Positions 15,378 through 28,018 of a stretch of 64,000 bases of DNA are shown piece after piece. Source of the DNA: an uncultured Acetatifactor sp. (GTDB lineage: Bacteria; Bacillota; Clostridia; Lachnospirales; Lachnospiraceae); assembly GCA_910585615.1 (NCBI GenBank), contig CAJUFO010000003.1:18380-82379 (forward strand), given 5' to 3'. The notes beneath the pieces were generated by a model. That model saw nothing but the letters and a program-made list of their open reading frames with translations, searched no databases and was not told the origin of the DNA. Position 1 is the stretch's first letter; each line of letters opens with the position of its first letter. A program made the translations under genes and the position numbers.

Positions 15378-15773
15378 TTGCATGGAATCCCGGCAAGGGA
15401 GATTGAGAGCTGGGCAGTGCAGGGAGGGCATTCCGGGACGGACGGTATGGCGCTGGCCAGGAAGCTGCGGCAGATGGGAGATTCCGTCAGCATCATCTTC
15501 GTGACAGGCAATCCGGATTTCGCGCTGGAGGGATACGACCTGGAGGCCGTGTCCTATATCGTGAAGCCTGTGAAAAGGCAGAGACTGTGGGCTGCGCTGG
15601 ACAGGGCCAGGGAGCGCATCGTCCACAGGGCGGCAATCATCGTGGGACGGATAGGGGAGCGGGGCAGTCATGAGGAGCTTCTGGCAAGGCAGGGGCAGTA
15701 CGCCGGGATGTGGCATGCCCAGGCAAAGTATTATGTGGAGCAGGAGCCCGGGGTTCCCGTAAATTCATTCTGA
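15378..15773 (+). pseudogene. Chimeric remnant: LytTR-type receiver fragment joined to an ABC-transporter C-terminal tail
   Basis: GTDGMALARKLR...IIFVTG..DFALEGYDLEAVSYIVKP (receiver lacking its N-terminal acidic residues), followed by GRIGERGSHEELLARQGQYAGMWHAQAKYY. Confidence 0.65.
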
Positions 15774-15843
15774 AGAAGGAGCCGGACTTCCTCCTGCGTA
15801 TTGGCCGCGCAGGAGGAAGCCCGGCTTCTCTGGCATATAGGGC

Positions 15844-15896
15844 TTGACAAAAGGATGACACAGTGTTATATTTTAATAGTCAACATTATGTCATAC
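15844..15896 (+). promoter_or_regulatory. Promoter with two palindromic operator-like sites
   Basis: TTGACA-17 nt-TATATT with extended TG; overlapping ATGACA-cag-TGTTAT and downstream CAACA-tta-TGTCAT. Confidence 0.6.
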
Positions 15897-15913
15897 ATAA
15901 AGGAGGGCAAAAT

Positions 15914-16297
15914 ATGGCGCAACAGATATCCGATGCCGAGCTTGAAATCATGAAAATCGTGTGGGCAAACCCCGAGGAGGTGACTCTGTTCTCCTATATC
16001 ATGGAGGGGCTGGCGGCCAGGGGCAAGCACTGTCAGAAGAACACACTGATCGTGCTGCTGTCGAGGCTGATGAACAAGGGCTTTCTCGGCGCCAGGAAAA
16101 TCGGACGCCGCAACGAATATACCGCGCTTGTCTCCGAGGCGGAGTACCAGACGGCGCAGACGAAGAACTTCCTGGATAAAATCTATGAGGGGAGCGCCAA
16201 AGGCCTGGTCTCCAACCTGATTTTGGGCGACCTGCTAGCAGAGGAGGAATACGAAGAACTGAAAAGGCTGCTGGAGGAAGGGAGAGGACGATCATGA
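15914..16297 (+). CDS. BlaI/MecI/CopY family repressor
   Basis: ISDAELEIMKIVW...LLSRLMNKGFL...Y.ALVS....F....Y.GSAKGLV; GGAGG RBS. Confidence 0.9.
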   Translation: MAQQISDAELEIMKIVWANPEEVTLFSYIMEGLAARGKHCQKNTLIVLLSRLMNKGFLGARKIGRRNEYTALVSEAEYQTAQTKNFLDKIYEGSAKGLVSNLILGDLLAEEEYEELKRLLEEGRGRS

Positions 16298-18441
16298 ACC
16301 AGATTTTGAAACTCTTCCTGTCCATGTCTTTTTCCGGCAGTCTGCTCATATTGTTCCTGCTTTTGGGAAAAAGATTCCTGAAAGACAAAATCAATCGACA
16401 GTGGCAGTATTACATCTGGGCCGTTGTGGTTTTGCGGCTGCTGCTCCCTTTCGGGCCGGAGGCAAGCCTGCTGGGAAGAACCTATCAGGCTGTGGACCGT
16501 GCCGTCGCCCGGACCGTCCCGCTGCGGCAACAGTCCCTGCCGGATGCTCCGGAAAGCGTTCCGGCCCCTGCCGCGGGGAGAGGAACGGATAATGTGCATG
16601 GGGACAGCCCGGCAGGCGATTTTGCAGCGTTCCACCCGTTTCAGGACATTGGGACGCTGCTGATGGACCACATCTGGCTGGTCTGGCTGATGGCCGCGCT
16701 GGGGCTGATGATACGAAAGGCGACCATCTACCAGGGCTTTATACGGTATATCAAAGCCGGTTCCGTCCCTGTTTCTGATATGGAAATGCTGGACCGGCTT
16801 TCCATGGCGGCGGAGCAGGCATCCGTAAAAAGGCCCATTGATTTATGGGTCAATCCACTGGTCTCTTCTCCGTTGCTGATCGGTTTTTTCCGTCCATGTA
16901 TCGTACTGCCAGGTACAGATGTTTCTGAAAAGAATTTTCAGTACATCCTCATGCATGAGCTGACGCACTATAGGCGGCGGGATATGTTCTACAAATGGCT
17001 GGTGCAGTTTACGGTCTGTCTGCACTGGTTCAACCCGCTTGTCCATCTGATGGGCCGGGAGATTACAAGAGCGTGCGAATTTTCCTGCGATGAAGCTGTC
17101 CTGGCCAGAATGGGATACGAAAACGCACAGGATTATGGGCAGACCCTGCTGGACGCCATGGCGGCGGTCTGGAGATACCGGGAAAACCCGGGAGCCGTCA
17201 CGTTAAGCGAAAACAAACGGCTGTTGAAAGAGAGGTTGAGCGCTATCGTGAATTTCAGGGAGAAGTCAAAGGCGATGCGGTTTCTGACGGGGGCGCTGAC
17301 GCTGTTGGTGATATCCGGGGCGGCTTTCATCGGCGTTTATCCCGTTGTCCAGGCAGGCAGTCCCGAGGGCGGCAATCCGGCGGCATATGATTCACAGGCA
17401 GTCAGTCCCCGGGCGGAAAAGGGCGGGCAGGGGGACATGGATGGGGTCGGCATCCAGTATTCTCAGATGGCGGAGAAGGGCTATGAAGCGTACAGCCTGC
17501 CGTTGTTTCAATTGGCGTTCTGCAGGCTGGACGAGGCGGAACAGGGCGAGTGGCTGGACAGGATTTACGCGGATGGGGAGATCGCGTTCATGGGGGCCGC
17601 TGTCGCTGTGGCGGAGGAGGACTGCGCCGCAATCCGGAATTTGGCAGAGCGGATATATGAGGATGGGGAGATTGCTTTTTTCTCCGTGCTGGCACCGCAC
17701 ATGAGCGAGGAGACATTGCTGGCCTGGCTGGACAGGGCCCTGGAGGACGGGGACATATCTTTCCAGTCCGTCCTGTTTGATGCCCTGGATCGGGACGAGG
17801 AATATGACGAGCTGAAGGAAGCGCAGGAGGAAGCATGGGACGAAGCGCAGGCGGCGGAATACCGGGCGGCAGGCGTTACAATGGACGGAAAGGATTATTA
17901 CTACCGGGAGCAGCTTGTGGACATCTTTTTGGATATGCGCCCCGGCAAAGCCTTTTACACGCTGAGTATGAATCCGGAGGGAACCGTCAATATCAGGATC
18001 CTGCGCAATGATGAGAATGAAATCACAGGCGTTGCCTATATGACGGAGGCGGAAGTGGCGGAGCTGCTGGGAGAGAGCGGGGAGGATTCGGACGATGAAG
18101 CCGATGCGGAAACCATCCCTGTGGATTTGGATACCATAGCGGCCGGGGAGTCTGTCTGCCTGGGGGAATACACGCTGGCCTTTGGGGACCGGATCAGGTA
18201 TGATATTTTAGCGGAGACAGGAACGGGAATGACAGTCTTCTTCGACAGGGGCGAGAAGAACACGGTATACTGGGCCGCGCACAATCTGCGGCAGGAGGAT
18301 GAACCGCTGAAATGTAGCGCGGAGTTTACCGTTGAGCCTCCGATAAAGCCCGGAACTTTTAAACTGTACATCCAGGCCACGTACGACACGCTGGAGGAGG
18401 TGAAAGGCAGTATTTCCATTGTGCCGGCAGACGCGTCCTGA
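16294..18441 (+). CDS. BlaR1-like M56 metallopeptidase with an uncharacterised C-terminal region
   Basis: N-terminal TM segments, SPLLIGFFRP, HELTHYRRRD zinc motif, HWFNPL and CEFSCDE. Confidence 0.9.
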   Translation: MNQILKLFLSMSFSGSLLILFLLLGKRFLKDKINRQWQYYIWAVVVLRLLLPFGPEASLLGRTYQAVDRAVARTVPLRQQSLPDAPESVPAPAAGRGTDNVHGDSPAGDFAAFHPFQDIGTLLMDHIWLVWLMAALGLMIRKATIYQGFIRYIKAGSVPVSDMEMLDRLSMAAEQASVKRPIDLWVNPLVSSPLLIGFFRPCIVLPGTDVSEKNFQYILMHELTHYRRRDMFYKWLVQFTVCLHWFNPLVHLMGREITRACEFSCDEAVLARMGYENAQDYGQTLLDAMAAVWRYRENPGAVTLSENKRLLKERLSAIVNFREKSKAMRFLTGALTLLVISGAAFIGVYPVVQAGSPEGGNPAAYDSQAVSPRAEKGGQGDMDGVGIQYSQMAEKGYEAYSLPLFQLAFCRLDEAEQGEWLDRIYADGEIAFMGAAVAVAEEDCAAIRNLAERIYEDGEIAFFSVLAPHMSEETLLAWLDRALEDGDISFQSVLFDALDRDEEYDELKEAQEEAWDEAQAAEYRAAGVTMDGKDYYYREQLVDIFLDMRPGKAFYTLSMNPEGTVNIRILRNDENEITGVAYMTEAEVAELLGESGEDSDDEADAETIPVDLDTIAAGESVCLGEYTLAFGDRIRYDILAETGTGMTVFFDRGEKNTVYWAAHNLRQEDEPLKCSAEFTVEPPIKPGTFKLYIQATYDTLEEVKGSISIVPADAS

Positions 18442-18478
18442 GTTATATGTAAGACTATCTGTAATAGCCGTCATAAAA

Positions 18479-18512
18479 GAAGCCGCCCAGTGGGATTTCC
18501 CGGGGCGGCTTC
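18479..18512 (+). terminator. Intrinsic terminator-like hairpin
   Basis: GAAGCCGCCC...GGGCGGCTTC stem. Confidence 0.55.
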
Positions 18513-18654
18513 CGGGTTTGTTTTTGAAATTGTGGTTTTTGAAATTGTATGCAGATTATCATTGTAATGGCTCGGATAATCCGTTATACTAGGAAATACA
18601 GAGGACGGATGGATGGCGAGGTTCCGGGCAGGGATTTTGCGGAAGGAGGCGCTT

Positions 18655-19207
18655 ATGGAATGGAATAATAGCATTCCACGGACAGTGGGTATCGGGATAC
18701 AGGATTTCGCAAAGGTGGTCACAAACAATTCTGATCCGGGAGGGCAGCCCGAAGCTCAAGACAGTGATGGAAGGGCTGTTGCAGGGAAGGACTTTCCGTA
18801 CCCTGCTTGACGAGCAGGTTGTGTTCAGTGAGCTGAATCAGGGTGAGGAGGCGGTTTGGAGCCTGCTGCTCGCCAGCGGATATTTAAAAGCAGTACAGGC
18901 GGAGTTCAACACGGAATGCCTGGAGATGGAGTACGAGCTGAAGCTGACCAACCTGGAAATCCGCATCATGTTCCTGCATATGATCAGGGGGTGGTTCGGA
19001 GGCTGCCGCATGGAGCACAATGCCTTTCTGCAGGCGCTGCTTTCCGAGCCAAAGGAGACTTTGGAGGACGCCGTCAGGTCGGCCTTGCAGCAGATTGAGG
19101 AGAAGCAGTATGAGACGGCTCTGCTAAGCAGAGGGATAGCGCCGGAACGAATCAGGAAATACGGCTTCGCCTTTGAGGGGAGCAGTGTGCTGATTGGGAA
19201 AGGGTAA
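18655..19207 (+). pseudogene. AAA-ATPase-like / PD-(D/E)XK_9 protein with internal deletions
   Basis: AAGGAGG RBS and VGIGIQDFAK N-terminus jump (with frameshift) to DEQVVF...AVWSLLLASGYLK, then jump to ALQQIEEKQY...RKYGFAFEG. The ATPase core and nuclease catalytic motifs are missing. Confidence 0.8.
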
Positions 19208-19210
19208 TCA

Positions 19211-19282
19211 GAAAAAGACAACCTGGCTATGCAGAGAGTGATTGAGAGGCTCGGCTTTACCAGGTGTGGACTTGATATATGA
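19211..19282 (+). pseudogene. GNAT acetyltransferase C-terminal remnant
   Basis: Translates EKDNLAMQRVIERLGFTRCG, the N-x-x-M...GF...G GNAT tail; no start codon. Confidence 0.5.
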
Positions 19283-19320
19283 AAGGAAGTGAAAAGTCGG
19301 GCCGCCCCGCCCGCTGAGGA

Positions 19321-19884
19321 ATGCTGGATATCGTACAGGATAAAATCAGGATAAGAACCATGGCTTCCGATGATGCCGTTGTGCTGCTCAAATGGATGAC
19401 GGATATGCGCGTGCTGGAGTTCTATGAGGGGAGAGACAAGAGATATACGCCGGAACTGATACAGGAAGATTTTTTTAGGCGTGATGAAGAAGGTGACGGA
19501 AATGTGATAAAAGCCATACTGGAATACGATGGCAAGCCCATTGGATATGGGCAGATATATAGCATCACAGGTGAAGCCTACGAAGAATACGGATATGAGA
19601 ACCGAAATGAGACCGTATACGGCATCGACCAGTTCATCGGGGAGCCAGATTATTGGAACAGAGGAATCGGGACGGAGTACCTGAAGCTTGTCCTGAAGTT
19701 CCTGCGGGAAGAAAAGCGGGCTGATGCCGTCATCTTGGATCCACATCAGGATAACGCCAGGGCAATCAGATGTTATCAAAAGGCCGGTTTCCGCATCATA
19801 AAAAGCTTGCCGGAGCATGAGCTGCACGAAGGGAAGATGAGAGACTGTTATTTGATGGAGTATCGCTATGAGGACAAGGCATAA
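19321..19884 (+). CDS. Aminoglycoside 6'-N-acetyltransferase, AAC(6')-Ie/Im subfamily homolog
   Basis: VLEFYEGRDKRYT, PIGYGQIY, YGIDQFIGEPDYWNRGIGTEY, AVILDPHQDNARAIRCYQKAGFRII and LPEHELHEGK..DCYLMEYRY match the AAC(6')-Ie domain as I recall it. Confidence 0.85.
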   Translation: MLDIVQDKIRIRTMASDDAVVLLKWMTDMRVLEFYEGRDKRYTPELIQEDFFRRDEEGDGNVIKAILEYDGKPIGYGQIYSITGEAYEEYGYENRNETVYGIDQFIGEPDYWNRGIGTEYLKLVLKFLREEKRADAVILDPHQDNARAIRCYQKAGFRIIKSLPEHELHEGKMRDCYLMEYRYEDKA

Positions 19885-20017
19885 GGATGTGGAGGAAGTA
19901 CGTTTCATCATAGAGGGCAGCTTTGAGCATTTACATGTCGATAACATCCGGTTTATGGGCCATGGGAATGACTGTGATGCATATGAGATAAACGGCAGTA
20001 TGATATTTAAATTTCCA
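19883..20017 (+). pseudogene. APH(2'')-like phosphotransferase N-terminal stub
   Basis: KDVEEVRFIIEGSFEHLHVDNIRFMGHGNDCDAYEINGSMIFKFP resembles the APH(2'') N-lobe start (G.G.D..AY..N...IFK); truncated after about 45 codons. Confidence 0.7.
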
Positions 20018-20457
20018 AATATTGATTGGGATGAGGTTGAGCAGTATTTAAACAATATGTTGGAGAATTTGTAGAAATTGCTGAAAGCAAAGAAATCATA
20101 TACATAGGCAATGATCTTCCTGATGAATACACAGGTTCCAATTATACGGCAAAGTTGAAAGGTGCTCTTGCAAAGGCAAAAGCAAATGCCACACAAGGAA
20201 TTCCTGAAATCATAGAAATTGCCGAAAATAAGCGATTTCGGGAGAATCTAGCGAAAAAGCATGATAAAAATGCCAGGTTTGGATGGTATCGGTATGATTC
20301 TCGTTTTGCCCTTCCGATTTTTGATGACGATGGAGAGGTTTTGCGTTATAATGTGTTCTATGTGGAGATTGTCATAAGACATGCAGAGGATAGGAAGTTG
20401 TATTTATATGACATCATAAACATAAAAAAAGAAACGAGTACCCCGCTTGAGCAATAA
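20018..20457 (+). pseudogene. 5'-truncated, frameshifted conserved hypothetical gene (possibly LPD3-like)
   Basis: IDWDEVEQYL, then a frameshift near 20050 to KQYVGEFVEIAESKEIIYIGNDLPDEYTGS...KAKANATQGIPE...GWYRYDSRFALP...YLYDIINIKKETSTP. AT-rich. Family name is from memory. Confidence 0.6.
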
Positions 20458-20525
20458 AGCTGTACGGTTAAAAACTCATTTCTTTCTTTAATTATATGAC
20501 AACTAAGGGAGAATGTCAAGAAAAA

Positions 20526-21992
20526 ATGTATAATGAAATTGATTTCGATAAAATAGATATAGCTTTATGCCCGCCGATAGAGGAGCCCGCTAGGCAATAC
20601 TACTTCATGGCGAAATGCCGCAAATGGGTAAGCGCTTTTACACAGAAAAACGGTCGTCCGCCCAAAGCCTGTGTGACTACCTTCGGTTGCCAGATGAACG
20701 CCCGGGACTCCGAGAAGCTCATGGGCATCCTGGAGGTCATAGGTTATGTCCCTACCGACAGCGAGCAGGCGGACTTCGTCATCTACAACACCTGCACCGT
20801 CCGCGACAACGCCAATCAGCGCGTTTACGGCAGATTAGGAGAGCTGAACCGCTACAAAAAGCAGAACCCCCAAATGAGGATAGCCCTCTGCGGCTGCATG
20901 ATGCAGGAGCCCACGGTCATCGAAAAACTGAAGAAAAGCTATTCCTTCATAGACCTGATCTTCGGCACCCACAATATCTATAAATTTGCCGAGCTCCTCT
21001 GGGCATCCTTCGAGACGGAGGGCATGCTGATTGACATCTGGGGGGAAACGGATAAAATCGTAGAAGACCTGCCGGTAGAGCGCAAATACCCCTTCAAGTC
21101 CGGCATAAACATCATGTTCGGCTGCAACAATTTCTGCAGCTACTGCATCGTCCCCTACGTAAGAGGCCGGGAGCGCAGTAGGCAGCCCAGGGAGATTCTC
21201 CGCGAGATAGAGCGCCTGGTGGCGGACGGCGTGGTGGAGGTGATGCTCCTGGGCCAGAACGTGAATTCCTACGGAAAAAATCTGAAGGAGCCCGTCACCT
21301 TCGCCCAGCTTTTGCGGGAGGTGGAGAAGATAGAGGGCCTGCGGCGCATCCGCTTCATGACCTCCCACCCCAAGGACCTGTCGGAGGAGCTGATAGAGGT
21401 CATGAAGCAGTCGAAGAAAATCTGCCGCCACCTCCACCTGCCCCTGCAGTCCGGCTCCACCCGCATCCTGCAGCAGATGAACAGGCGCTACACCAAAGAG
21501 CAGTACCTGGAGCTGGCGGAGCGCATCCGCAGGGAGATACCGGATATCGCCATCACCACGGACATCATCGTGGGCTTCCCGGGGGAGACGCCGGAGGATC
21601 TGGAGGAGACCCTTGACGTGGTGCGCAGGGTGAAATACGACAATGCCTTTACCTTCATCTATTCCAAGCGCACAGGCACCCCCGCGGCGGCCATGGAGAA
21701 CCAGGTGCCCCCGGAGCAGGTGAAGGAAGGCTTCGACAGGCTCCTGAAGCTGGTGCAGGAGACTGCCAGGGAGCAGGTGGCGAAATACCAGGGGCAGGTC
21801 ATGGAGGCGCTGATCGAGGAAGTCAACGAGAGCGACGCATCCTTGGTCACCGGCAGGCTGTCCAACAACACCATCGTCCATTTGCCCGGGGACGCTTCCT
21901 TGATTGGGAAAATCGTACCGGTTTCGTTAGATGAATGCCATGGATTTTATTATATTGGGCATTGCATTTTGGACGAAACAGGTGCAGAATAG
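20526..21992 (+). CDS. miaB: tRNA-2-methylthio-N6-dimethylallyladenosine synthase
   Basis: TFGCQMN, NTCTVR, radical SAM GCNNFCSYCIVPYVRG, TTDIIVGFPGET and a C-terminal TRAM domain. Confidence 0.95.
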   Translation: MYNEIDFDKIDIALCPPIEEPARQYYFMAKCRKWVSAFTQKNGRPPKACVTTFGCQMNARDSEKLMGILEVIGYVPTDSEQADFVIYNTCTVRDNANQRVYGRLGELNRYKKQNPQMRIALCGCMMQEPTVIEKLKKSYSFIDLIFGTHNIYKFAELLWASFETEGMLIDIWGETDKIVEDLPVERKYPFKSGINIMFGCNNFCSYCIVPYVRGRERSRQPREILREIERLVADGVVEVMLLGQNVNSYGKNLKEPVTFAQLLREVEKIEGLRRIRFMTSHPKDLSEELIEVMKQSKKICRHLHLPLQSGSTRILQQMNRRYTKEQYLELAERIRREIPDIAITTDIIVGFPGETPEDLEETLDVVRRVKYDNAFTFIYSKRTGTPAAAMENQVPPEQVKEGFDRLLKLVQETAREQVAKYQGQVMEALIEEVNESDASLVTGRLSNNTIVHLPGDASLIGKIVPVSLDECHGFYYIGHCILDETGAE

Positions 21993-22018
21993 AATAAACT
22001 GGAAAGTACAGGGACGGG

Positions 22019-22783
22019 ATGGAGATGACGGGACAGTTTGCAAGGACTCAGCTTCTGCTGGGAGAAGTGGCGATGGAGCGGCTGCGCAGGTCGAGAGTGG
22101 CCGTGTTCGGCATAGGCGGCGTGGGCGGGCATGTATGCGAGGCCCTTGCCCGCAGCGGCATCGGGGCATTTGACCTGGTGGATGACGACAGGGTAAGCCT
22201 GACGAACCTGAACCGGCAGATCATCGCTACCACGAGCACCATTGGACGCTGCAAGGTGGACGTGATGCGGGAGCGCATCCTGGACATCAATCCGGAGGCA
22301 GAGGTTCGGGTATATCAATGCTTCTTCCTGCCGGAAAACGCCGCATCCTTTCCCTTCGAGGAATACGACTATGTAGTAGACGCGGTGGACACCGTCACCG
22401 CCAAGCTGGCGCTGGTCATGCGCGCAAAGGAAATCGGCATCCCCATCATCAGCAGCATGGGAGCCGGGAACAAGCTGGATGCCACCGCTTTCCGCGTGGC
22501 GGATATCTACGACACAAAGGTCTGCCCCCTGGCGAAGGTCATGCGCCGGGAGCTGAAGAAGCGGGGCGTGGAGAGCCTGAAAGTGGTATACTCGGAGGAG
22601 GTTCCCGTCAGCCCCGATGGAAACGCGATGGAAGCTTTGAGAGACGGCGAAAACCCGGCAGATACCCTGAACCGGGACGCAAGACGGCGCAGCATCCCCG
22701 GAAGCGTCGCCTTTGTACCCTCCGTGGCGGGGCTGATCATCGCGGGCGAGGTGATAAAGGATTTGTCAATGAAGCCGTTGTAG
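22019..22783 (+). CDS. tcdA: ThiF/E1-family tRNA threonylcarbamoyladenosine dehydratase
   Basis: VFGIGGVGG, DDDRVSLTNLNRQ, DAVDTVTAK, SSMGAGNKLD and PGSVAFVPSVAG. Confidence 0.85.
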   Translation: MEMTGQFARTQLLLGEVAMERLRRSRVAVFGIGGVGGHVCEALARSGIGAFDLVDDDRVSLTNLNRQIIATTSTIGRCKVDVMRERILDINPEAEVRVYQCFFLPENAASFPFEEYDYVVDAVDTVTAKLALVMRAKEIGIPIISSMGAGNKLDATAFRVADIYDTKVCPLAKVMRRELKKRGVESLKVVYSEEVPVSPDGNAMEALRDGENPADTLNRDARRRSIPGSVAFVPSVAGLIIAGEVIKDLSMKPL

Positions 22784-22798
22784 AAAGGAAGCTACAAT

Positions 22799-23101
22799 AT
22801 GAATGACAATGTATTTACACTAAATGATATTGTGAGCCTGGTAAAACCAATCGTAGAAAAGTATGGTGTGGAAGAGATGTACCTATTCGGATCTTATGCA
22901 AGGGGAGATGCTGATAAAGACAGTGATTTAGATTTTCTCGTATTTGGTGGCGCGAATTTTAAGCTTACTATGATTTTTGCGCTTGCAGAAGAACTGCGCG
23001 AGGTACTGAAAAAGGAAGTGGATGTCTTTGAAATTAGCGAAATCAATAGGGACAGCGATTTTTATCATACCATCATGAAAGAGAGGCTGCTTGTGGCATG
23101 A
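22799..23101 (+). CDS. Minimal nucleotidyltransferase (MNT antitoxin-like)
   Basis: YLFGSYARGDADKDSDLDF...EVDV motif; AT-rich. Confidence 0.9.
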   Translation: MNDNVFTLNDIVSLVKPIVEKYGVEEMYLFGSYARGDADKDSDLDFLVFGGANFKLTMIFALAEELREVLKKEVDVFEISEINRDSDFYHTIMKERLLVA

Positions 23102-23166
23102 AGTATTCGGATCAACAGCGCGTTCAGAAGATATATAGGTTGTCTTTGAAGAATTGCCTGTTTTGA
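23098..23166 (+). pseudogene. Probable stub of a HEPN/DUF86 partner gene
   Basis: ATGA overlap with the MNT stop. MKYSDQQRVQKIY resembles clostridial DUF86 N-termini; stops after 22 codons. Confidence 0.5.
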
Positions 23167-23274
23167 TAGGCCAATTAAAAAAACTCGTATGAATATTTAG
23201 TCTGGCGTCCAAGGCAGAGATTTTGCCAGGATGAACGAAACGAGAACATTCCATGCAGGACAAGGAGATACCCC

Positions 23275-24384
23275 ATGAAAGTAGTATTGCGGAATCTGAC
23301 GAAAAAGTTCCCCAGCCGGGACAAAAAGAACAAGACGGACGTGGTCGCCGTCAGCAACTTCAATTTTGAGATTCCGGATGGCAAGCTCATCGGATTGCTT
23401 GGCCCCTCCGGCTGCGGCAAGAGCACTACGCTGAACCTGATCAGCGGCCTGGAGAAGCCCACGGAGGGCCAGGTCTTCTTTGGGGAGGACGATGTCACCA
23501 ACCTGCCGCCGGAGCACAGGGGCATCGGCCTGGTGTTCCAGAACTACGCCCTGTACCCTCACCTGACCGTCAGGCAGAACATCCTCTTTCCCCTGGAGAA
23601 CCTGAAAGGCAAGGACAAGCTCTCCAAGGAAGAAATGCTGGAAAAAGCTACAGAAGCCGCAAAGCTGGTACAGATCGACGAGCTCATGGAGCGCAAGCCC
23701 GGAGAACTCTCCGGGGGCCAGCAGCAGCGTGTGGCAATCGCCAGGGCTCTGGTGAAGCGCCCCAAAGTGCTCCTCCTGGACGAGCCCCTCTCCAACCTGG
23801 ACGCCCGCCTGCGGCTTCAGACCAGGGAAGAAATCAAGCGGATCCAGAAAGAGACCGAAATCACCACCATCTTCGTCACCCATGACCAGGAGGAGGCCAT
23901 GAGCATATCTGACATAATCGTAGTCATGAAGGACGGCACGGTACAGCAGATTGGCAGGCCCCAGGAGGTCTACGACAATCCGGCGAACCTGTTCGTGGCG
24001 AAATTCCTGGGGACTCCGCCCGTCAATATTTTCCAGGGACAGGTGAAGGACGGTCAGCTCGTCCTTGGCGGGGATGCCGTCCTGCCGGTAAAGGGAGCGC
24101 CGGACGGCCCTGTCCTCGCAGGCATCCGGCCCGAGGGCTTCCTGCTGCGCAAAAGCGGAGCCTTTCGGTGCCAGCTCGACAGTGTAGAGGTCATGGGGCG
24201 GGATATCAGCGTAGTGGCCTCTAACAAGGCTGCCATGTCGCCTATGATTCGGGCCATCATAGGCTCTGAAAATCTGGCGGAGGTATCTGTGGATGCCAGC
24301 CAGGTCAGCTTTGACCTGAAGCCGAACAAGGTGCTCCTCTTCGATAGGGAGACGGAAGAACGATTGCATTTTAACACAAAATAG
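23275..24384 (+). CDS. Carbohydrate ABC transporter ATP-binding subunit (MalK-like)
   Basis: [39 protein letters not shown] and a TOBE tail. Confidence 0.95.
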
Positions 24385-24401
24385 CTGATGAGGGTGCGGA
24401 C

Positions 24402-25307
24402 ATGATTAAATGGAAATCCTGTTTCAACAATATAAAGGGCTGGCTGTACCTCCTGCCGGCAATCCTTTTTCTCGGCTTTTTTATGGTATATCCACTGATA
24501 GACGTATTCGTCTATTCCTTTGAGGAGGGCTACAATTCCGCGTCCCAGACCTATTTCGGCATGGGAACCTATAACTATTCCTATGTCCTCCACGACCCCT
24601 ATTTCCTGCAGGCCCTGAAGAACACCTTCCTGCTGGTGATCATCACAGTGCCCCTGTCCACGGGAATCGCCCTGCTGATTTCCGTGGGGCTGAATTCCAT
24701 AAAACCCCTGCGGAACCTTTTACAGACCATCTATTTCCTGCCCTATGTGACAAACACCCTGGCAGTGGGCCTGGTATTCATGATTCTGTTCAAGAAGACC
24801 GCCTATTCCGACGGTCTGGTGAACCTGCTCATCCAGTGGTTCGGCGGGGAATCTGTGGACTTCATCGACGGGCCCTACTGGGCGAAGATGTTCGTGCTGT
24901 GCCTTTATACCATTTGGGTGGTGATGCCTTTCAAGATTCTGATTCTCACCAGCGCGCTGGCTTCCGTCAACCAAGACTATTACAAAGCCGCGAAAGTGGA
25001 CGGAACATCGAAATTCCGTACATTCATGCGCATCACGCTGCCCATGATATCGCCTATGATCTTCTACCTGGTCATCACGGGCTTCATCGGGGCCTTCAAG
25101 GCGTACAGCGATGCCGTGGCACTGTTCGGCACGAACCTGAACGCGGCGGGGATGAATACCATAGTGGGTTATGTCTACGACATGCTGTACGGGGACAGCG
25201 GCGGCTATCCGTCCTACGCCTCCGCGGCGGCCATCATCCTGTTCGCCATCGTCCTCACCATTACCTGCATCAACCTGCTGATCAGCAGGAAGAACATGCA
25301 TTATTGA
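24402..25307 (+). CDS. Carbohydrate ABC permease
   Basis: Six TM segments; EAA-like loop YKAAKVDGTS. Confidence 0.92.
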   Translation: MIKWKSCFNNIKGWLYLLPAILFLGFFMVYPLIDVFVYSFEEGYNSASQTYFGMGTYNYSYVLHDPYFLQALKNTFLLVIITVPLSTGIALLISVGLNSIKPLRNLLQTIYFLPYVTNTLAVGLVFMILFKKTAYSDGLVNLLIQWFGGESVDFIDGPYWAKMFVLCLYTIWVVMPFKILILTSALASVNQDYYKAAKVDGTSKFRTFMRITLPMISPMIFYLVITGFIGAFKAYSDAVALFGTNLNAAGMNTIVGYVYDMLYGDSGGYPSYASAAAIILFAIVLTITCINLLISRKNMHY

Positions 25308-25337
25308 TTCCTTTTCGGAGGAGAGGAGGAGCATCCC

Positions 25338-26225
25338 ATGAAAGAAGCGCATCCGGGAGAAGCAAGATATTCCAAGATAGAACAGACAGCCGAAAGGCGC
25401 AGTACGGCGGCCAGAGCCGTTACATATTTCTTCCTGATTCTATGGGCCGTCATCGTGCTGTTCCCCTTTTACTGGATGATACTGACATCCTTGAAGAGCT
25501 ACGGCGCATATAACTCGGAAAGCATCCCGAAATTCTTCACCCTGTCGCCGACGCTGCAAAATTATGTGGATGCCTTTACGGCGGTTCCTCTTGCACGTTA
25601 TTTCGCAAATACGGTCATCTTCACCCTGCTGACCACGGCTGTCATGATCGTGGTAATCACCCTGGCGGCCTTCGCCTTTGCCAGGCTGGAGTTCCGGGGG
25701 CGGAATGGGGCTTTCCTCCTGTTCCTGTCCCTGATGATGATTCCGGGCGAGCTGGTAATCATCACCAATTTCGTGACCATCACCAATCTGGACATGCGCA
25801 ATACCTTTCAGGGACTGATACTGCCCTCCGTCACATCGGTCTTCTACATCTATCTGCTGAAGGAGAATTTCGAGCAGGTGCCGGACAGCCTGTACAAGGC
25901 GGCCAAGGTGGACGGCACCTCGGACATGAAGTATCTGCTGAAGGTCCTGGTGCCCATATCCAGGCCCACGCTGATTACCGTGACGATTCTGAAGGTGATT
26001 GAATGCTGGAATTCCTATGTGTGGCCCAGGCTGATTACGGATGACGAGAACTACTATCTGGTGTCCAACGGAATCCAGGAGATCCGGGAGAACGGCTTCG
26101 GCCGGGAGAACATCCCGGCCATGATGGCAGCGGTGGTGGTGATCTCCCTGCCATTGATCGGGCTGTTCCTGATTTTCCACAAGAAGATCATGGCGGGCGT
26201 GTCAAGGGGAGGGACCAAGGGATGA
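25338..26225 (+). CDS. Carbohydrate ABC permease
   Basis: FARLEFRG, LYKAAKVDG and WNSYVWP. Confidence 0.92.
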   Translation: MKEAHPGEARYSKIEQTAERRSTAARAVTYFFLILWAVIVLFPFYWMILTSLKSYGAYNSESIPKFFTLSPTLQNYVDAFTAVPLARYFANTVIFTLLTTAVMIVVITLAAFAFARLEFRGRNGAFLLFLSLMMIPGELVIITNFVTITNLDMRNTFQGLILPSVTSVFYIYLLKENFEQVPDSLYKAAKVDGTSDMKYLLKVLVPISRPTLITVTILKVIECWNSYVWPRLITDDENYYLVSNGIQEIRENGFGRENIPAMMAAVVVISLPLIGLFLIFHKKIMAGVSRGGTKG

Positions 26226-28018
26226 AGGACGAGGAGATGAGGAGCCAAGGCGCGGCGGGCCGGAGGGCAGAAGCCCGGGAAGCGAGCAGCCAGGGCGCGG
26301 CGGGACAGAGGATGGAAGCCCGGAAGCGCAGGAACCGAAGAGCGGAAGCACGAAAAGTCAGAAACCAAAGCAGGGTGGATTGGCGGATGGAAAGGCCGGA
26401 ACAGGGAAGGAGTCGGCGCTGCGCCCGCCCGCTTCTGGCGGCGCTGGCGGCCCTCATGGTCTGCATGCTCCTGCTCACCGGCTGCCACGGCTCCAGGGGG
26501 CTGGACGCTTTCGTCATGCCGGAGAGCTTTGACATGGCGGCAGAGCACGAAATCACCTTCTGGGCCAAGAACGACACCAACAAGACCCAGACCGCCATCT
26601 ATGAACAGGCCATCGCGGATTTCGAGAAGCTGTACCCGAACATCCATGTGAACCTGCGTCTGTATACGGATTATGGGAAAATCTATAACGATGTGATAAC
26701 GAACATCGCCACCCATACCACGCCCAATGTGTGCATCACCTATCCGGACCACATCGCCACATATCTCACCGGCGTCAACCAGGTCGTCCCGCTGGAGGAG
26801 CTGTTCGGCGATGAAAGGTACGGCCTGGGCGGCAGCGAAGTGAAGTACGACTCCCCCGGGAAGGACGAAATCATACCCCAATACCTGGAGGAGTGCGCGT
26901 TCGGCGGCCATTATTACGCCATCCCCTACATGCGTTCCACTGAAAGCTGCTATATCAACAAGACTTATGTGGAAAAGCTGGGCTTTCAGATGCCGGATGC
27001 CCTGACATGGGATTTCGTTTGGGAGGTGTCCGAGGCCGCAATGGCCATGGACGGGGAGGGCAACTTCCTGGTGAACGGCCAGAAAGTGCTGATTCCCTTC
27101 ATCTATAAGTCTACGGACAACATGATGATACAGCAGATCAGGCAGAAGGGCATCGGATACTCCACCGAGGAAGGGGAGATTCTGCTTTTCTCCGATGCCA
27201 CCAAAGAGCTGCTGGAGACCATAGCGGAGCATACCCGGACCGGGGCCTTCTCCACCTTCAAGGTTTCCAGCTACCCGGCCAACTTCCTGAACGCGGGACA
27301 GTGCATCTTCGCCATCGACTCCACCGCTGGCGCCACCTGGATGGGATGCGACGCCCCCCTGATAGACATCAGCCCCGACAAGCTGGTGGAATTCGAGACG
27401 GAGGTCCTGCCCATCCCCCAGTTCGACCCAGCGAACCCCCAGATGATATCCCAAGGCCCCTCGGTGTGCGTCTTTAATAAGGAGGATCCTCAGGAGGTGC
27501 TGGCTTCCTGGCTGTTCGCCCAGTATCTGCTGACCGACGAAGTGCAGATTGCCTATGCCCAGACGGAAGGGTACGTGCCCGTGACCACCAAGGCCAGGCA
27601 GTCGCAGGCGTATCAGGACTATCTCTCCAGAAGCGGCGAGGACAATGCCCTCCACTACGATGTCAAGATCAAGGCCACGAAGCTCCTGCTGGAGAACGTG
27701 GATCACACCTTCGTCACGCCGGTGTTCAACGGCTCCGCCTCCCTGCGGGACGCCGCGGGCCAGCTGATTGAGGAGACGGTGAAATCCATCCGCCGCTCCC
27801 AGACAGTGGACGATGCGTACTACGGGAAGCTTTACGAGGATTTGAACGCGCGCTACCATCTGGATCAACTGTCTCGACAGGACGGCTCCGCCCAGAAGGA
27901 GAAAGCCGACCTGGGGCCGCTTCCCAGGCCTGCCATACTGCTTCTGGCCGGACTGGCCGTAGCCTGGGCGCTGATGCTTTTCTATGTACTTTTTGAAAAA
28001 ACAAAGCAAAGGAAATGA
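26222..28018 (+). CDS. ABC solute-binding lipoprotein (family 1) with a C-terminal TM segment
   Basis: Lipobox LLLTGC, SBP fold motifs (YAIPYMRSTE..Y.NK, ISQGPS) and a hydrophobic C-terminus. True start may lie downstream of the repetitive N-terminus. Confidence 0.85.
   Translation: MKDEEMRSQGAAGRRAEAREASSQGAAGQRMEARKRRNRRAEARKVRNQSRVDWRMERPEQGRSRRCARPLLAALAALMVCMLLLTGCHGSRGLDAFVMPESFDMAAEHEITFWAKNDTNKTQTAIYEQAIADFEKLYPNIHVNLRLYTDYGKIYNDVITNIATHTTPNVCITYPDHIATYLTGVNQVVPLEELFGDERYGLGGSEVKYDSPGKDEIIPQYLEECAFGGHYYAIPYMRSTESCYINKTYVEKLGFQMPDALTWDFVWEVSEAAMAMDGEGNFLVNGQKVLIPFIYKSTDNMMIQQIRQKGIGYSTEEGEILLFSDATKELLETIAEHTRTGAFSTFKVSSYPANFLNAGQCIFAIDSTAGATWMGCDAPLIDISPDKLVEFETEVLPIPQFDPANPQMISQGPSVCVFNKEDPQEVLASWLFAQYLLTDEVQIAYAQTEGYVPVTTKARQSQAYQDYLSRSGEDNALHYDVKIKATKLLLENVDHTFVTPVFNGSASLRDAAGQLIEETVKSIRRSQTVDDAYYGKLYEDLNARYHLDQLSRQDGSAQKEKADLGPLPRPAILLLAGLAVAWALMLFYVLFEKTKQRK

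Follow-up and report, generated by a model that had tools for sequence, protein, structure and literature searches.

Bifunctional enzymes in which an N-terminal AAC(6') acetyltransferase is joined by a linker to a C-terminal APH(2'') kinase are represented in enterococci and staphylococci by AAC(6')-Ie-APH(2'')-Ia (PDB 4QC6 for the acetyltransferase, the 5IQA family for the kinase). Monofunctional counterparts of the two halves are AAC(6')-Im, an acetyltransferase of ~180 amino acids in the same subfamily (PDB 6BFF and 6BFH; PMC5722643), and the stand-alone kinase APH(2'')-IVa (deposited as APH(2'')-Id; PDB 4N57 and 3SG8). The roles of the acetyl-CoA- and aminoglycoside-binding residues (Tyr34, Trp54, Asp99 and Asp136) have been described, Trp54 stacking on kanamycin ring C in both solved enzymes, AAC(6')-Ie and -Im (PMC5722643). 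Here, we describe a gene at positions 19321-20017 of a 64,000-nucleotide stretch of DNA from an uncultured Acetatifactor species (contig CAJUFO010000003.1), the whole of which is called the window below. A sequence-only reading of this DNA had taken the gene for a diverged AAC(6')-APH(2'') fusion split by a single base, in a gut anaerobe. That the locus is a relic of such a fusion in a gut member of the Lachnospiraceae is, in our judgement, practically certain; our literature search found no paper connecting Acetatifactor or Lachnospiraceae with an AAC(6')-APH(2'') fusion.

With AAC(6')-Ie-APH(2'')-Ia the window gene shares the ancestral N-AAC(6')-linker-APH(2'')-C architecture, an AAC domain that is 59% identical, and a linker that aligns without gaps (EYRYDDNATNVKAMKYLIE in the window, EYRYEDKA(K)DVEEVRFIIE in the known enzyme). 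Unlike that enzyme, the window fusion is broken, with its kinase almost wholly deleted and Trp54 absent; the kinase of its clade groups with APH(2'')-IVa, its identity to Ia-type domains being only 30–33%; and the gene is chromosomal and syntenic rather than transposon-borne, with a G + C content (GC) of 47% as against ~25% in mobile fusions. The surviving product is, like AAC(6')-Im (57% identity), monofunctional, and has Im-like residues at positions 35 (acidic), 80–81, and 85 (Glu). It differs from AAC(6')-Im in scoring under the Im cutoff, in the replacement of Trp54, and in having become stand-alone through decay of a fused kinase, with the linker and a kinase stub still attached. APH(2'')-IVa is the best characterized match of the clade kinase, and the motif GxGNDCxAYEIN...IFKFPKH is common to both; unlike stand-alone APH(2'')-IVa, the clade kinase is fused and scores 245–250 bits against a cutoff of 600, and the window keeps just 45 codons of it. 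Closest of all are two intact fusions in related genomes (L028 and L029), which represent the living form of the window gene: their AAC domains are 76–92% identical, the stub region is the same, and L028 has the same neighbors. A further fusion, the L010 type, is built the same way, with a kinase of the IVa-like branch (52% identity to the kinase of the sister locus L022, 61% to the window AAC domain), but, unlike the window gene, is AT-rich (GC 23.5%) and lies on a mobile module of 2.4–3.9 kb.

Results

An intact acetyltransferase frame followed by a truncated kinase

The window gene is made up of the following parts.

19321-19884, plus strand: aac(6') half, an uninterrupted open reading frame for a 187-amino acid GNAT of the AAC(6')-Ie/Im family, with a TAA stop at 19882-19884
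19882, plus strand: extra base where AAC meets APH, most simply explained as an inserted T, which makes the TAA stop and shifts the kinase frame
19883-20017, plus strand: aph(2'') stub of 45 codons in the +1 frame, comprising an N-terminal helix, the Gly-rich loop GHGNDCDAY, and the strand IFKFP
20017-20020: deletion junction, at which the kinase sequence stops at TTTCCAAA and is joined to TATTGATTGGG of an unrelated downstream fragment

Reading of the frame at 19321-19884 confirmed the intact AAC(6')-Ie-like domain ending EYRYEDKA-stop that had been proposed (...MEYRYEDKA-TAA; the C terminus of the 187-residue product is ...DCYLMEYRYEDKA, followed by TAA). The frame matched NCBIfam NF033693 (AAC(6')-Ie family) with an expect value (E) of 1.6e-78 and 262.9 bits, against a curated cutoff of 340, and was likewise below the cutoffs of NF000507 (246.9 versus 450 bits) and NF000016 (Im; 225.5 versus 350 bits). 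Pfam matches were to Acetyltransf_8, Acetyltransf_1, and Acetyltransf_3, and the solved structures matched were 4QC6 (E 1e-69) and 6BFF (E 7e-65). An AlphaFold model of the 187-residue protein, with a predicted local distance difference test score (pLDDT) of 92, superposed on 4QC6 with a template modeling (TM) score of 0.94–0.98 and a root mean square deviation of 1.0 Å, and on 6BFF with a TM score of 0.90; the next structural neighbors beyond AAC(6') enzymes include SpeG polyamine acetyltransferases (TM ~0.75). The acetyl-CoA pyrophosphate-binding loop of the GNAT fold (Q/R-x-x-G-x-G/A) is present as WNRGIGT with Gly111 and Gly113 invariant, and Tyr34, Tyr96, Asp99, Asp136, Glu81, and Glu85 are also kept. 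Identity of the domain was 59% to AAC(6')-Ie, 57% to AAC(6')-Im, and 30% to AAC(6')-Ib. In a neighbor-joining tree, the Acetatifactor AAC domains formed one clade with 100% bootstrap support, a deep branch inside the Ie/Im group, so that tree and identities place them there and not among generic GNATs. By this tree, the window gene falls inside the Ie/Im clade, but it is too diverged for automatic naming.

No frame runs continuously through both halves in the window, the acetyltransferase being closed by TAA at 19882-19884 and the kinase lying in the +1 frame. By DNA alignment, the extra junction base is present in the window, L005, and L007 and absent from the in-frame loci L001, L021, L004, and L006; L022 and L025 also have it. 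The junction reads GCA-T-AAG in the window and GCT-T-AAG in L005; "deleting T19882" is the most economical description, the alignment alone not telling which of the neighboring bases was inserted. Contigs from four independent public mouse-gut runs, compared over 19200-20500, showed 0 differences and 0 gaps, T19882 being identical in all of them; these are stored assembled contigs, in which minority variants would stay invisible. The frameshift is genuine and old.

From 19883, the shifted frame reads KDVEEVRFIIEGSFEHLHVDNIRFMGHGNDCDAYEINGSMIFKFP (45 codons, to 20017) and then NIDWDEVEQYLNNMLENL, to a stop at 20072-20074. The stub was recognized as an APH(2'') N terminus, as had been thought, by the NCBIfam model for APH(2'')-Ie/IVa (E 9e-8, 31.7 bits) and less strongly by that for APH(2'')-Ia/If/Ih (E 1e-3, 18.3 bits), and it matched APH(2'')-IVa in the PDB (E 2e-5). 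The gap-free linker alignment that the sequence-only reading gave also holds: residues 179–231 of the read-through align without gaps to residues 1–53 of the APH(2'')-Ia crystal construct (E 2e-7). Against NF000507, whose model includes the linker, the read-through covers positions 2–199 of 201, and the score rises from 246.9 to 257.6 bits.

The stub is 100% identical to the start of a near-complete kinase pseudogene in L022, a locus 97% identical to the window. After TTTCCAAA, L022 runs on as GCATGACTGGG... into the remaining kinase, its sequence at the deletion joint being TTTCCAAAGCATGACTGGG..., which leads into the rest of that domain; from 20017 onward, the window instead matches L020. 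A short microhomology is found at the joint (20017-20020). In the window, some 250 of ~295 kinase codons are deleted after FKFP, and only codons 1–45 are left, without the catalytic HNDxxxxN and the Mg-binding DFGD. The "single base" description was therefore half right: the extra base is genuine, but with ~250 kinase codons deleted as well, its removal restores nothing. A tblastn search of the 64-kb window with full fusions found no other APH remnant.

Intact and decayed fusions in relatives

In the species-representative genome set, the closest loci were in nine Acetatifactor or Lachnospiraceae genomes (75–93% protein identity), and the exact window sequence was found in many mouse-gut metagenomes. 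A search with the L020 kinase remnant gave three matches, among which P0122 led to L022; the read-through of the pseudogenized L022 kinase, used as a query, then retrieved P0272 and P0273, both intact fusions, P0273 lying on the 93-kb contig L028. An exhaustive search of representatives gave P0124 and P0125, neither with a name attached. The intact fusions that had been suggested as something to look for in relatives thus exist. The states of the related loci are as follows.

L028: intact fusion of 486 amino acids, L028:7962-9419, read from the conserved upstream ATG
L029-L032: intact fusion of 477 amino acids, in L029 at L029:4588-6018, read from the conserved upstream ATG
L022/L025: the junction frameshift of the window plus ~299 codons of kinase divided among four frames; 97% identical to the window
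L001/L021: stub in frame, then an internal deletion; ...LVHNDFSCGN remains out of frame
L020: AAC internally deleted; the N-terminal 80 and C-terminal 25 amino acids of the kinase are left
L005: the frameshift of the window plus deletions
L007: the frameshift of the window, then a deletion reaching miaB
L004/L006: about ten linker codons, then a deletion
L002/L003: another GNAT gene in place of the kinase
L008: stop right after EYRYQ

Of 13 distinct related loci, 12 have an intact AAC half and two an intact kinase half. Each of L001/L021, L020, L005, L004/L006, and L007 has a different deletion, with APH pieces such as LVHNDFSCGN and YADWIHEGLEKLKEL still recognizable.

Both L028 and L029 carry the kinase motifs LVHNDFSCGN and IDFGD. 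The gene order in L028 is ABC-ABC-BlaI-BlaR1-AAA_ATPase/PDDEXK_9-fusion-178-amino acid protein-GNAT-miaB-thiF; this is the undamaged form of the window's neighborhood, and the fusion occupies the same chromosomal site, whereas the contig of L029 stops before miaB. For the L028-L029 pair, at a dS above 1, the ratio of nonsynonymous to synonymous substitution rates (dN/dS) was 0.073 in AAC and 0.136 in APH. Where the fusion is intact, each half is thus predicted to be a functional gene, and the APH value argues that the kinase was once a selected function. These proteins fall under every named NCBIfam cutoff (AAC 248–254 versus 340 bits; APH 245–250 versus 600 bits), and the L028/L029 type is, as judged from its sequence, a bifunctional enzyme without a name in NCBIfam.

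The kinase is of the IVa-like branch of APH(2'')

The L022 read-through scored 234 bits against APH(2'')-IVa, 151 against IIa, 126 against Ia, and 107 against IIIa, and the L020 remnant 87 bits against IVa and 40 against Ia (NCBIfam Ie/IVa 80.5, Ia/If/Ih 33.8). The L028 kinase scored 245.5 bits with NF000076 (the Ie/IVa family, cutoff 600) and 161 with Ia/If/Ih. The L022 kinase is 52–54% identical to the kinase of the 483-amino acid L010-type fusion and to a stand-alone kinase, P0124, as against 30–33% to Ia-type fusions. The kinase partner of this clade therefore resembles APH(2'')-IVa rather than -Ia. The proposal that the window gene belongs to the same fusion lineage as AAC(6')-Ie-APH(2'')-Ia accordingly stands for the architecture and linker and falls for the kinase subclass, which is IVa-like instead of Ia.

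Two side observations concern the linker. The AAC domains of L014 and L015, which are Ia-type fusions, cluster with that of L016, an IVa-like fusion (95% bootstrap), and this disagreement between AAC tree and kinase type suggests domain swapping at the conserved linker. P0124 is a 305-amino acid stand-alone APH from a metagenome, whose N terminus MEYTYERNVDNIEAVKQII aligns with the last AAC strand and linker of the fusions, MEYRYRDNGKNIQAVRFLI; it would seem to have arisen by fission of a fusion, with a relic of the lost acetyltransferase kept. Taken together, the conflict and the relic suggest that swapping and fission at this linker may have occurred repeatedly.

Selection on the two halves

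All 45 pairs formed by the window and nine relatives gave AAC dN/dS values of 0.05–0.13, with dS of 0.4 to 2, and changes at the three codon positions numbered 21/18/54, a roughly three-fold excess at the third. For miaB, the gene immediately downstream, dN/dS was 0.10–0.11 and dS 0.46–0.76, a synonymous divergence of the same order as that of the AAC gene. The start ATG is conserved in 11 loci, the changes in codons 8–13 are synonymous, and mouse-gut metatranscriptome contigs span 19268-20310. It is highly probable, from these patterns, that the 187-residue AAC half is still a functional acetyltransferase protein; that aminoglycosides are still its substrate is a shade better than an even chance. 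The suggestion that the stop leaves a working stand-alone acetyltransferase is the best reading of the dN/dS range.

The stub behaved differently: its dN was six times that of the adjacent 3' part of AAC at equal dS. Its codon-position bias was 10/5/17 (p 0.03), and 2% of bootstrap replicates reached a dN/dS of 1, in a sample of 45 codons only. Constraint on the stub is relaxed, though by dN/dS not clearly lost. Possible sources of this signal are the noise of a 45-codon sample, a frameshift that arose after the species split and was spread by recombination, independent insertions, or residual translation.

Base composition and the mobile L010-type fusions

The window AAC gene has a GC of 47.5% and a GC at third codon positions (GC3) of 57%; GC3 is 68–77% in host genes, and intact mobile fusions have a GC of 23–27% and a GC3 of 10–15%. 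On this evidence, the Acetatifactor gene resembles not the source of the clinical gene but a sequence that was acquired long ago from an AT-rich donor and has since moved part of the way toward host composition; this argues that Acetatifactor was a recipient rather than the originator and that the donor pool lay in AT-rich Bacillota.

In the same searches, an intact fusion of 482–483 amino acids, pairing an AAC(6')-Ie-family domain with an IVa-like APH(2''), was observed at L010:9515-13404 and also in L009, L011, L012, L013, and L019. Its AAC domain passes the cutoff with 390 bits; its APH(2'') domain reaches 226 of the 600 bits required. Among plasmid sequences matched over the full length, the best, AAC(6')-Ie-APH(2'')-Ia, is just 55% identical. 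The segment (2.4–3.9 kb, GC 23.5%) is 97–100% identical in six otherwise unrelated contigs, assigned to Anaerofustis, Thomasclavelia, Ruminococcus, Muribaculaceae, Mucispirillum, and Onthocola, and its neighbors are a 143-amino acid GNAT, a 268-amino acid APH-like gene, and a weak MobV-like relaxase. Because the module is near-identical in six unrelated contigs and lies beside a MobV-like gene, we regard the L010 type as mobile.

Neighborhood of the locus

The features around the gene are listed below.

18764-19207, plus strand: C-terminal remnant of an AAA-ATPase-like/PDDEXK_9 gene, with a weak Pfam PDDEXK_9 match and two deletions
19208-19282, plus strand: 3' remnant of a small GNAT gene, the last ~24 codons, with a translation ending ...EKDNLAMQRVIERLGFTRCGLDI before the stop
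19298-19313: GC-rich hairpin, CGGGC-loop-GCCCG, 8 nucleotides upstream of the AAC start codon
20020-20457, plus strand: low-GC fragment of another gene (GC 37%, GC3 30%), with its own frameshift near 20070
20496-21992, plus strand: miaB-like gene for a radical-SAM methylthiotransferase, directly downstream of the locus and its conserved anchor on the chromosome

Wherever the downstream flank of an Acetatifactor-type locus is in the data, the gene is found just before miaB: synteny with miaB was seen in L001, L002, L005, L006, L020, and L028, with partial miaB matches in L004 and L007. Because its flanks are ordinary chromosomal genes, the gene is taken for a chromosomal resident and not a mobile element; the conserved miaB adjacency, a dS of the same order as that of miaB, and a GC partly adjusted to the host point to long residence at this site. 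Inside miaB, at 21274-21354, contigs of three RNA-type runs show joints that skip 70–79 nucleotides, which may reflect strain variation, an assembly artifact, or a repeat.

The frame of the stub enters the low-GC fragment and stops there, at 20072-20074. This fragment also lies just upstream of miaB in L020, L004, and L006, and it matched no Pfam family and no plasmid. One metatranscriptome contig has an extra A after 20049.

Upstream, the AAA-ATPase-like/PDDEXK_9 gene is full length in L022 (570 amino acids) and L028 (583 amino acids); relative to L022, the window lacks 896 bp at the joint 18730/18731 and 263 bp at 19047 (L022 2651-3546 and 3864-4126, respectively). The small GNAT is complete (143 amino acids, ending ...EEDNLAMQRVIEKLG) just upstream of the intact fusion in L029-L032, and a 97-amino acid product is found in L021. 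A two-gene module of small GNAT and fusion shared with the L010 type was considered and is not claimed, the upstream small GNATs being only 25–28% identical. The hairpin has a conserved stem and a variable loop in L005 and L007 and scores as terminator-like on the minus strand only.

The gene itself is a mosaic, with codons 1–100 L001-like (dS 0.115), codons 101–186 plus the stub closer to L005, and the recombination breakpoint near 19620. In the wider neighborhood, 15645-19047 and 24411-27298 are ~97% identical to L001/L002/L022/L028, and the core genes between them (miaB, a thiF-like gene, and others) 82–89%; a BlaR1-like M56 gene lies at 16294-18441 inside the first of these stretches, and position 15645 is a junction at which L004 and L007 carry different cargo. 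The identity pattern over 15645-27298 points to recombination or islet exchange among Acetatifactor species.

Discussion

The window feature belongs among the AAC(6')-APH(2'') fusions as a partly decayed member that has yet to be named, and the locus in all likelihood represents a degraded allele of an aac(6')-aph(2'') fusion gene residing on the chromosome of mouse-gut Acetatifactor-type Lachnospiraceae. The ancestor would have been a single open reading frame for ~480 amino acids just upstream of miaB, the state that relatives still show, composed of an AAC(6')-Ie/Im-family domain, a short linker of the form [RDE]D[NK]x[KT][ND][IV]..., and an IVa-like APH(2'') kinase domain. A +1 base where the two domains meet, common to L005, L007, and L022, would have placed a TAA exactly at the end of the acetyltransferase; more frameshifts would then have piled up in the kinase, a stage still visible in the sister strain L022, before a microhomology-associated deletion after kinase codon 45 fused the stub to the neighboring gene fragment. 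What the locus encodes now is most likely an AAC(6')-Ie/Im-family acetyltransferase that stands alone. This protein would be an acetyl-CoA-dependent N-acetyltransferase, acting most probably on the aminoglycoside 6'-amine like AAC(6')-Ie and -Im, with a substrate profile that may differ as the Trp54 loop is replaced by a variable acidic loop. Kinase activity, that is 2''-phosphorylation and hence protection against gentamicin, would have been lost.

Several observations weigh against this account of the locus and its product. The AAC domain scores under the curated NCBIfam cutoffs for both Ie (262.9 versus 340 bits) and Im (225.5 versus 350 bits). All clade members have Asp or Asn in place of Trp54, in a loop that is acidic and variable, and residues 56–59 of this loop are the sole low-confidence part of the AlphaFold model (pLDDT below 50). 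The RNA evidence consists of assembled contigs, which may contain DNA. A Shine-Dalgarno-like GAGGA abuts the ATG with zero spacer, a scan found no promoter-like site directly upstream of the frame, and a second in-frame ATG at 19360 is chosen by some gene callers. The dN/dS of the stub versus L005 is 0.32 (bootstrap 95% 0.11–0.95), not clearly 1, though both loci have the frameshift. Strict anaerobes, moreover, are held to be intrinsically aminoglycoside-resistant through lack of uptake (PMC5745468), so that the selective agent keeping the gene is not obvious.

The last point is central to an unlikely though serious alternative, namely that the acetyltransferase is functional but was co-opted for a physiological, non-antibiotic substrate (an aminosugar, a polyamine, or a cell-envelope amine), the kinase being dispensable. 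A constraint at housekeeping level, equal to that on miaB, in a strict anaerobe that ought to have no need of aminoglycoside protection (PMC5745468), the change of the Trp54 loop in every clade member, the many independent losses of the kinase beside a retained acetyltransferase, and the presence of SpeG among the next structural neighbors (TM ~0.75) all fit such a role. The fold is, however, much closer to AAC(6')-Ie/Im (TM 0.90–0.98) than to SpeG, and the other aminoglycoside-contact residues, Tyr34, Asp99, Asp136, Glu81, and Glu85, are conserved. The APH(2'') half of intact fusions is also under purifying selection (dN/dS 0.136, dS above 1), which argues for aminoglycoside-like compounds as a present or recent selective agent in the clade; we know of no substrates for this type of kinase other than aminoglycosides. 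It is more improbable still that the whole locus, the AAC frame included, is a dead relic whose frame is open by chance or recency and yields no useful protein. Such a relic would suit the surrounding fragments (of the AAA-ATPase, the small GNAT, the APH, and the low-GC gene), the poor ribosome-binding-site spacing and missing promoter-like site, and the internally deleted AAC half of L020. Against it, AAC is intact in 12 of the 13 related loci and present in metatranscriptome contigs, dN/dS is 0.05–0.13 across species at a dS of 0.4 to 2, and a 187-codon frame free of constraint would have closed and would lack the three-fold third-position excess.

There is only a slim chance that the stop is bypassed or the stub translated, by frameshifting at GCA-TAA-G or from an ATG at 19868, and that the stub has a residual role. 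The low dN/dS versus L005, with just 2% of bootstrap replicates at 1, and the codon-position bias would agree with translation, as would the frame at 19868-20074, which opens with that out-of-frame ATG and has been annotated as a gene in relatives (P0122); yet these statistics come from 45 codons only, and the ATG is a by-product of conserved Tyr-Glu/Asp codons. No slippery sequence was found at the junction, and programmed frameshifting is rejected as unlikely for that reason. In any case, 45 N-lobe codons lacking HNDxxxxN and DFGD cannot form a kinase, and the stub is wholly deleted in L002, L003, L007, and L008. That the frameshift is a sequencing or assembly error, the organism really having an intact fusion, has next to no probability and was refuted: an assembly error is excluded because contigs of four independent runs and studies are identical, the same extra base occurs in L005, L007, and L022/L025, and the kinase is cut by a large deletion even without it.

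The further idea that the gene might serve as a reservoir or bear on the origin of the fusion is not supported: the kinase is dead, the locus is chromosomal beside miaB, and the GC speaks for early acquisition from a low-GC donor. As its kinase is dead and its context is not mobile, the allele is no meaningful gentamicin-resistance reservoir; the window gene is at most an acetyltransferase, the kinase activity that defeats gentamicin being gone. For annotation, resistance pipelines would either miss the gene, as it scores under the cutoffs, or over-call it as a gentamicin-resistance fusion. The question of origin does become easier to test, as composition argues for recipient status and for AT-rich Bacillota donors.

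The interest of the locus rests on the intact, pseudogenized, and deleted kinase halves of its relatives more than on a single base. The Ie-type AAC domain has a second class of partner besides the Ia type, a IVa-like kinase, and this IVa-like fusion is found both in a chromosomal Acetatifactor lineage, intact or decayed, and on a small mobile module of other gut anaerobes. Should the AAC(6') half have been domesticated for some acetylation of normal physiology that has nothing to do with drugs, with a remodeled acidic Trp54 loop and a repeatedly discarded kinase, which we consider doubtful, the genus would be a natural experiment in the fission of a bifunctional enzyme, and the AAC-APH(2'') architecture would be old and widespread in strict anaerobes that have no need of aminoglycoside resistance.

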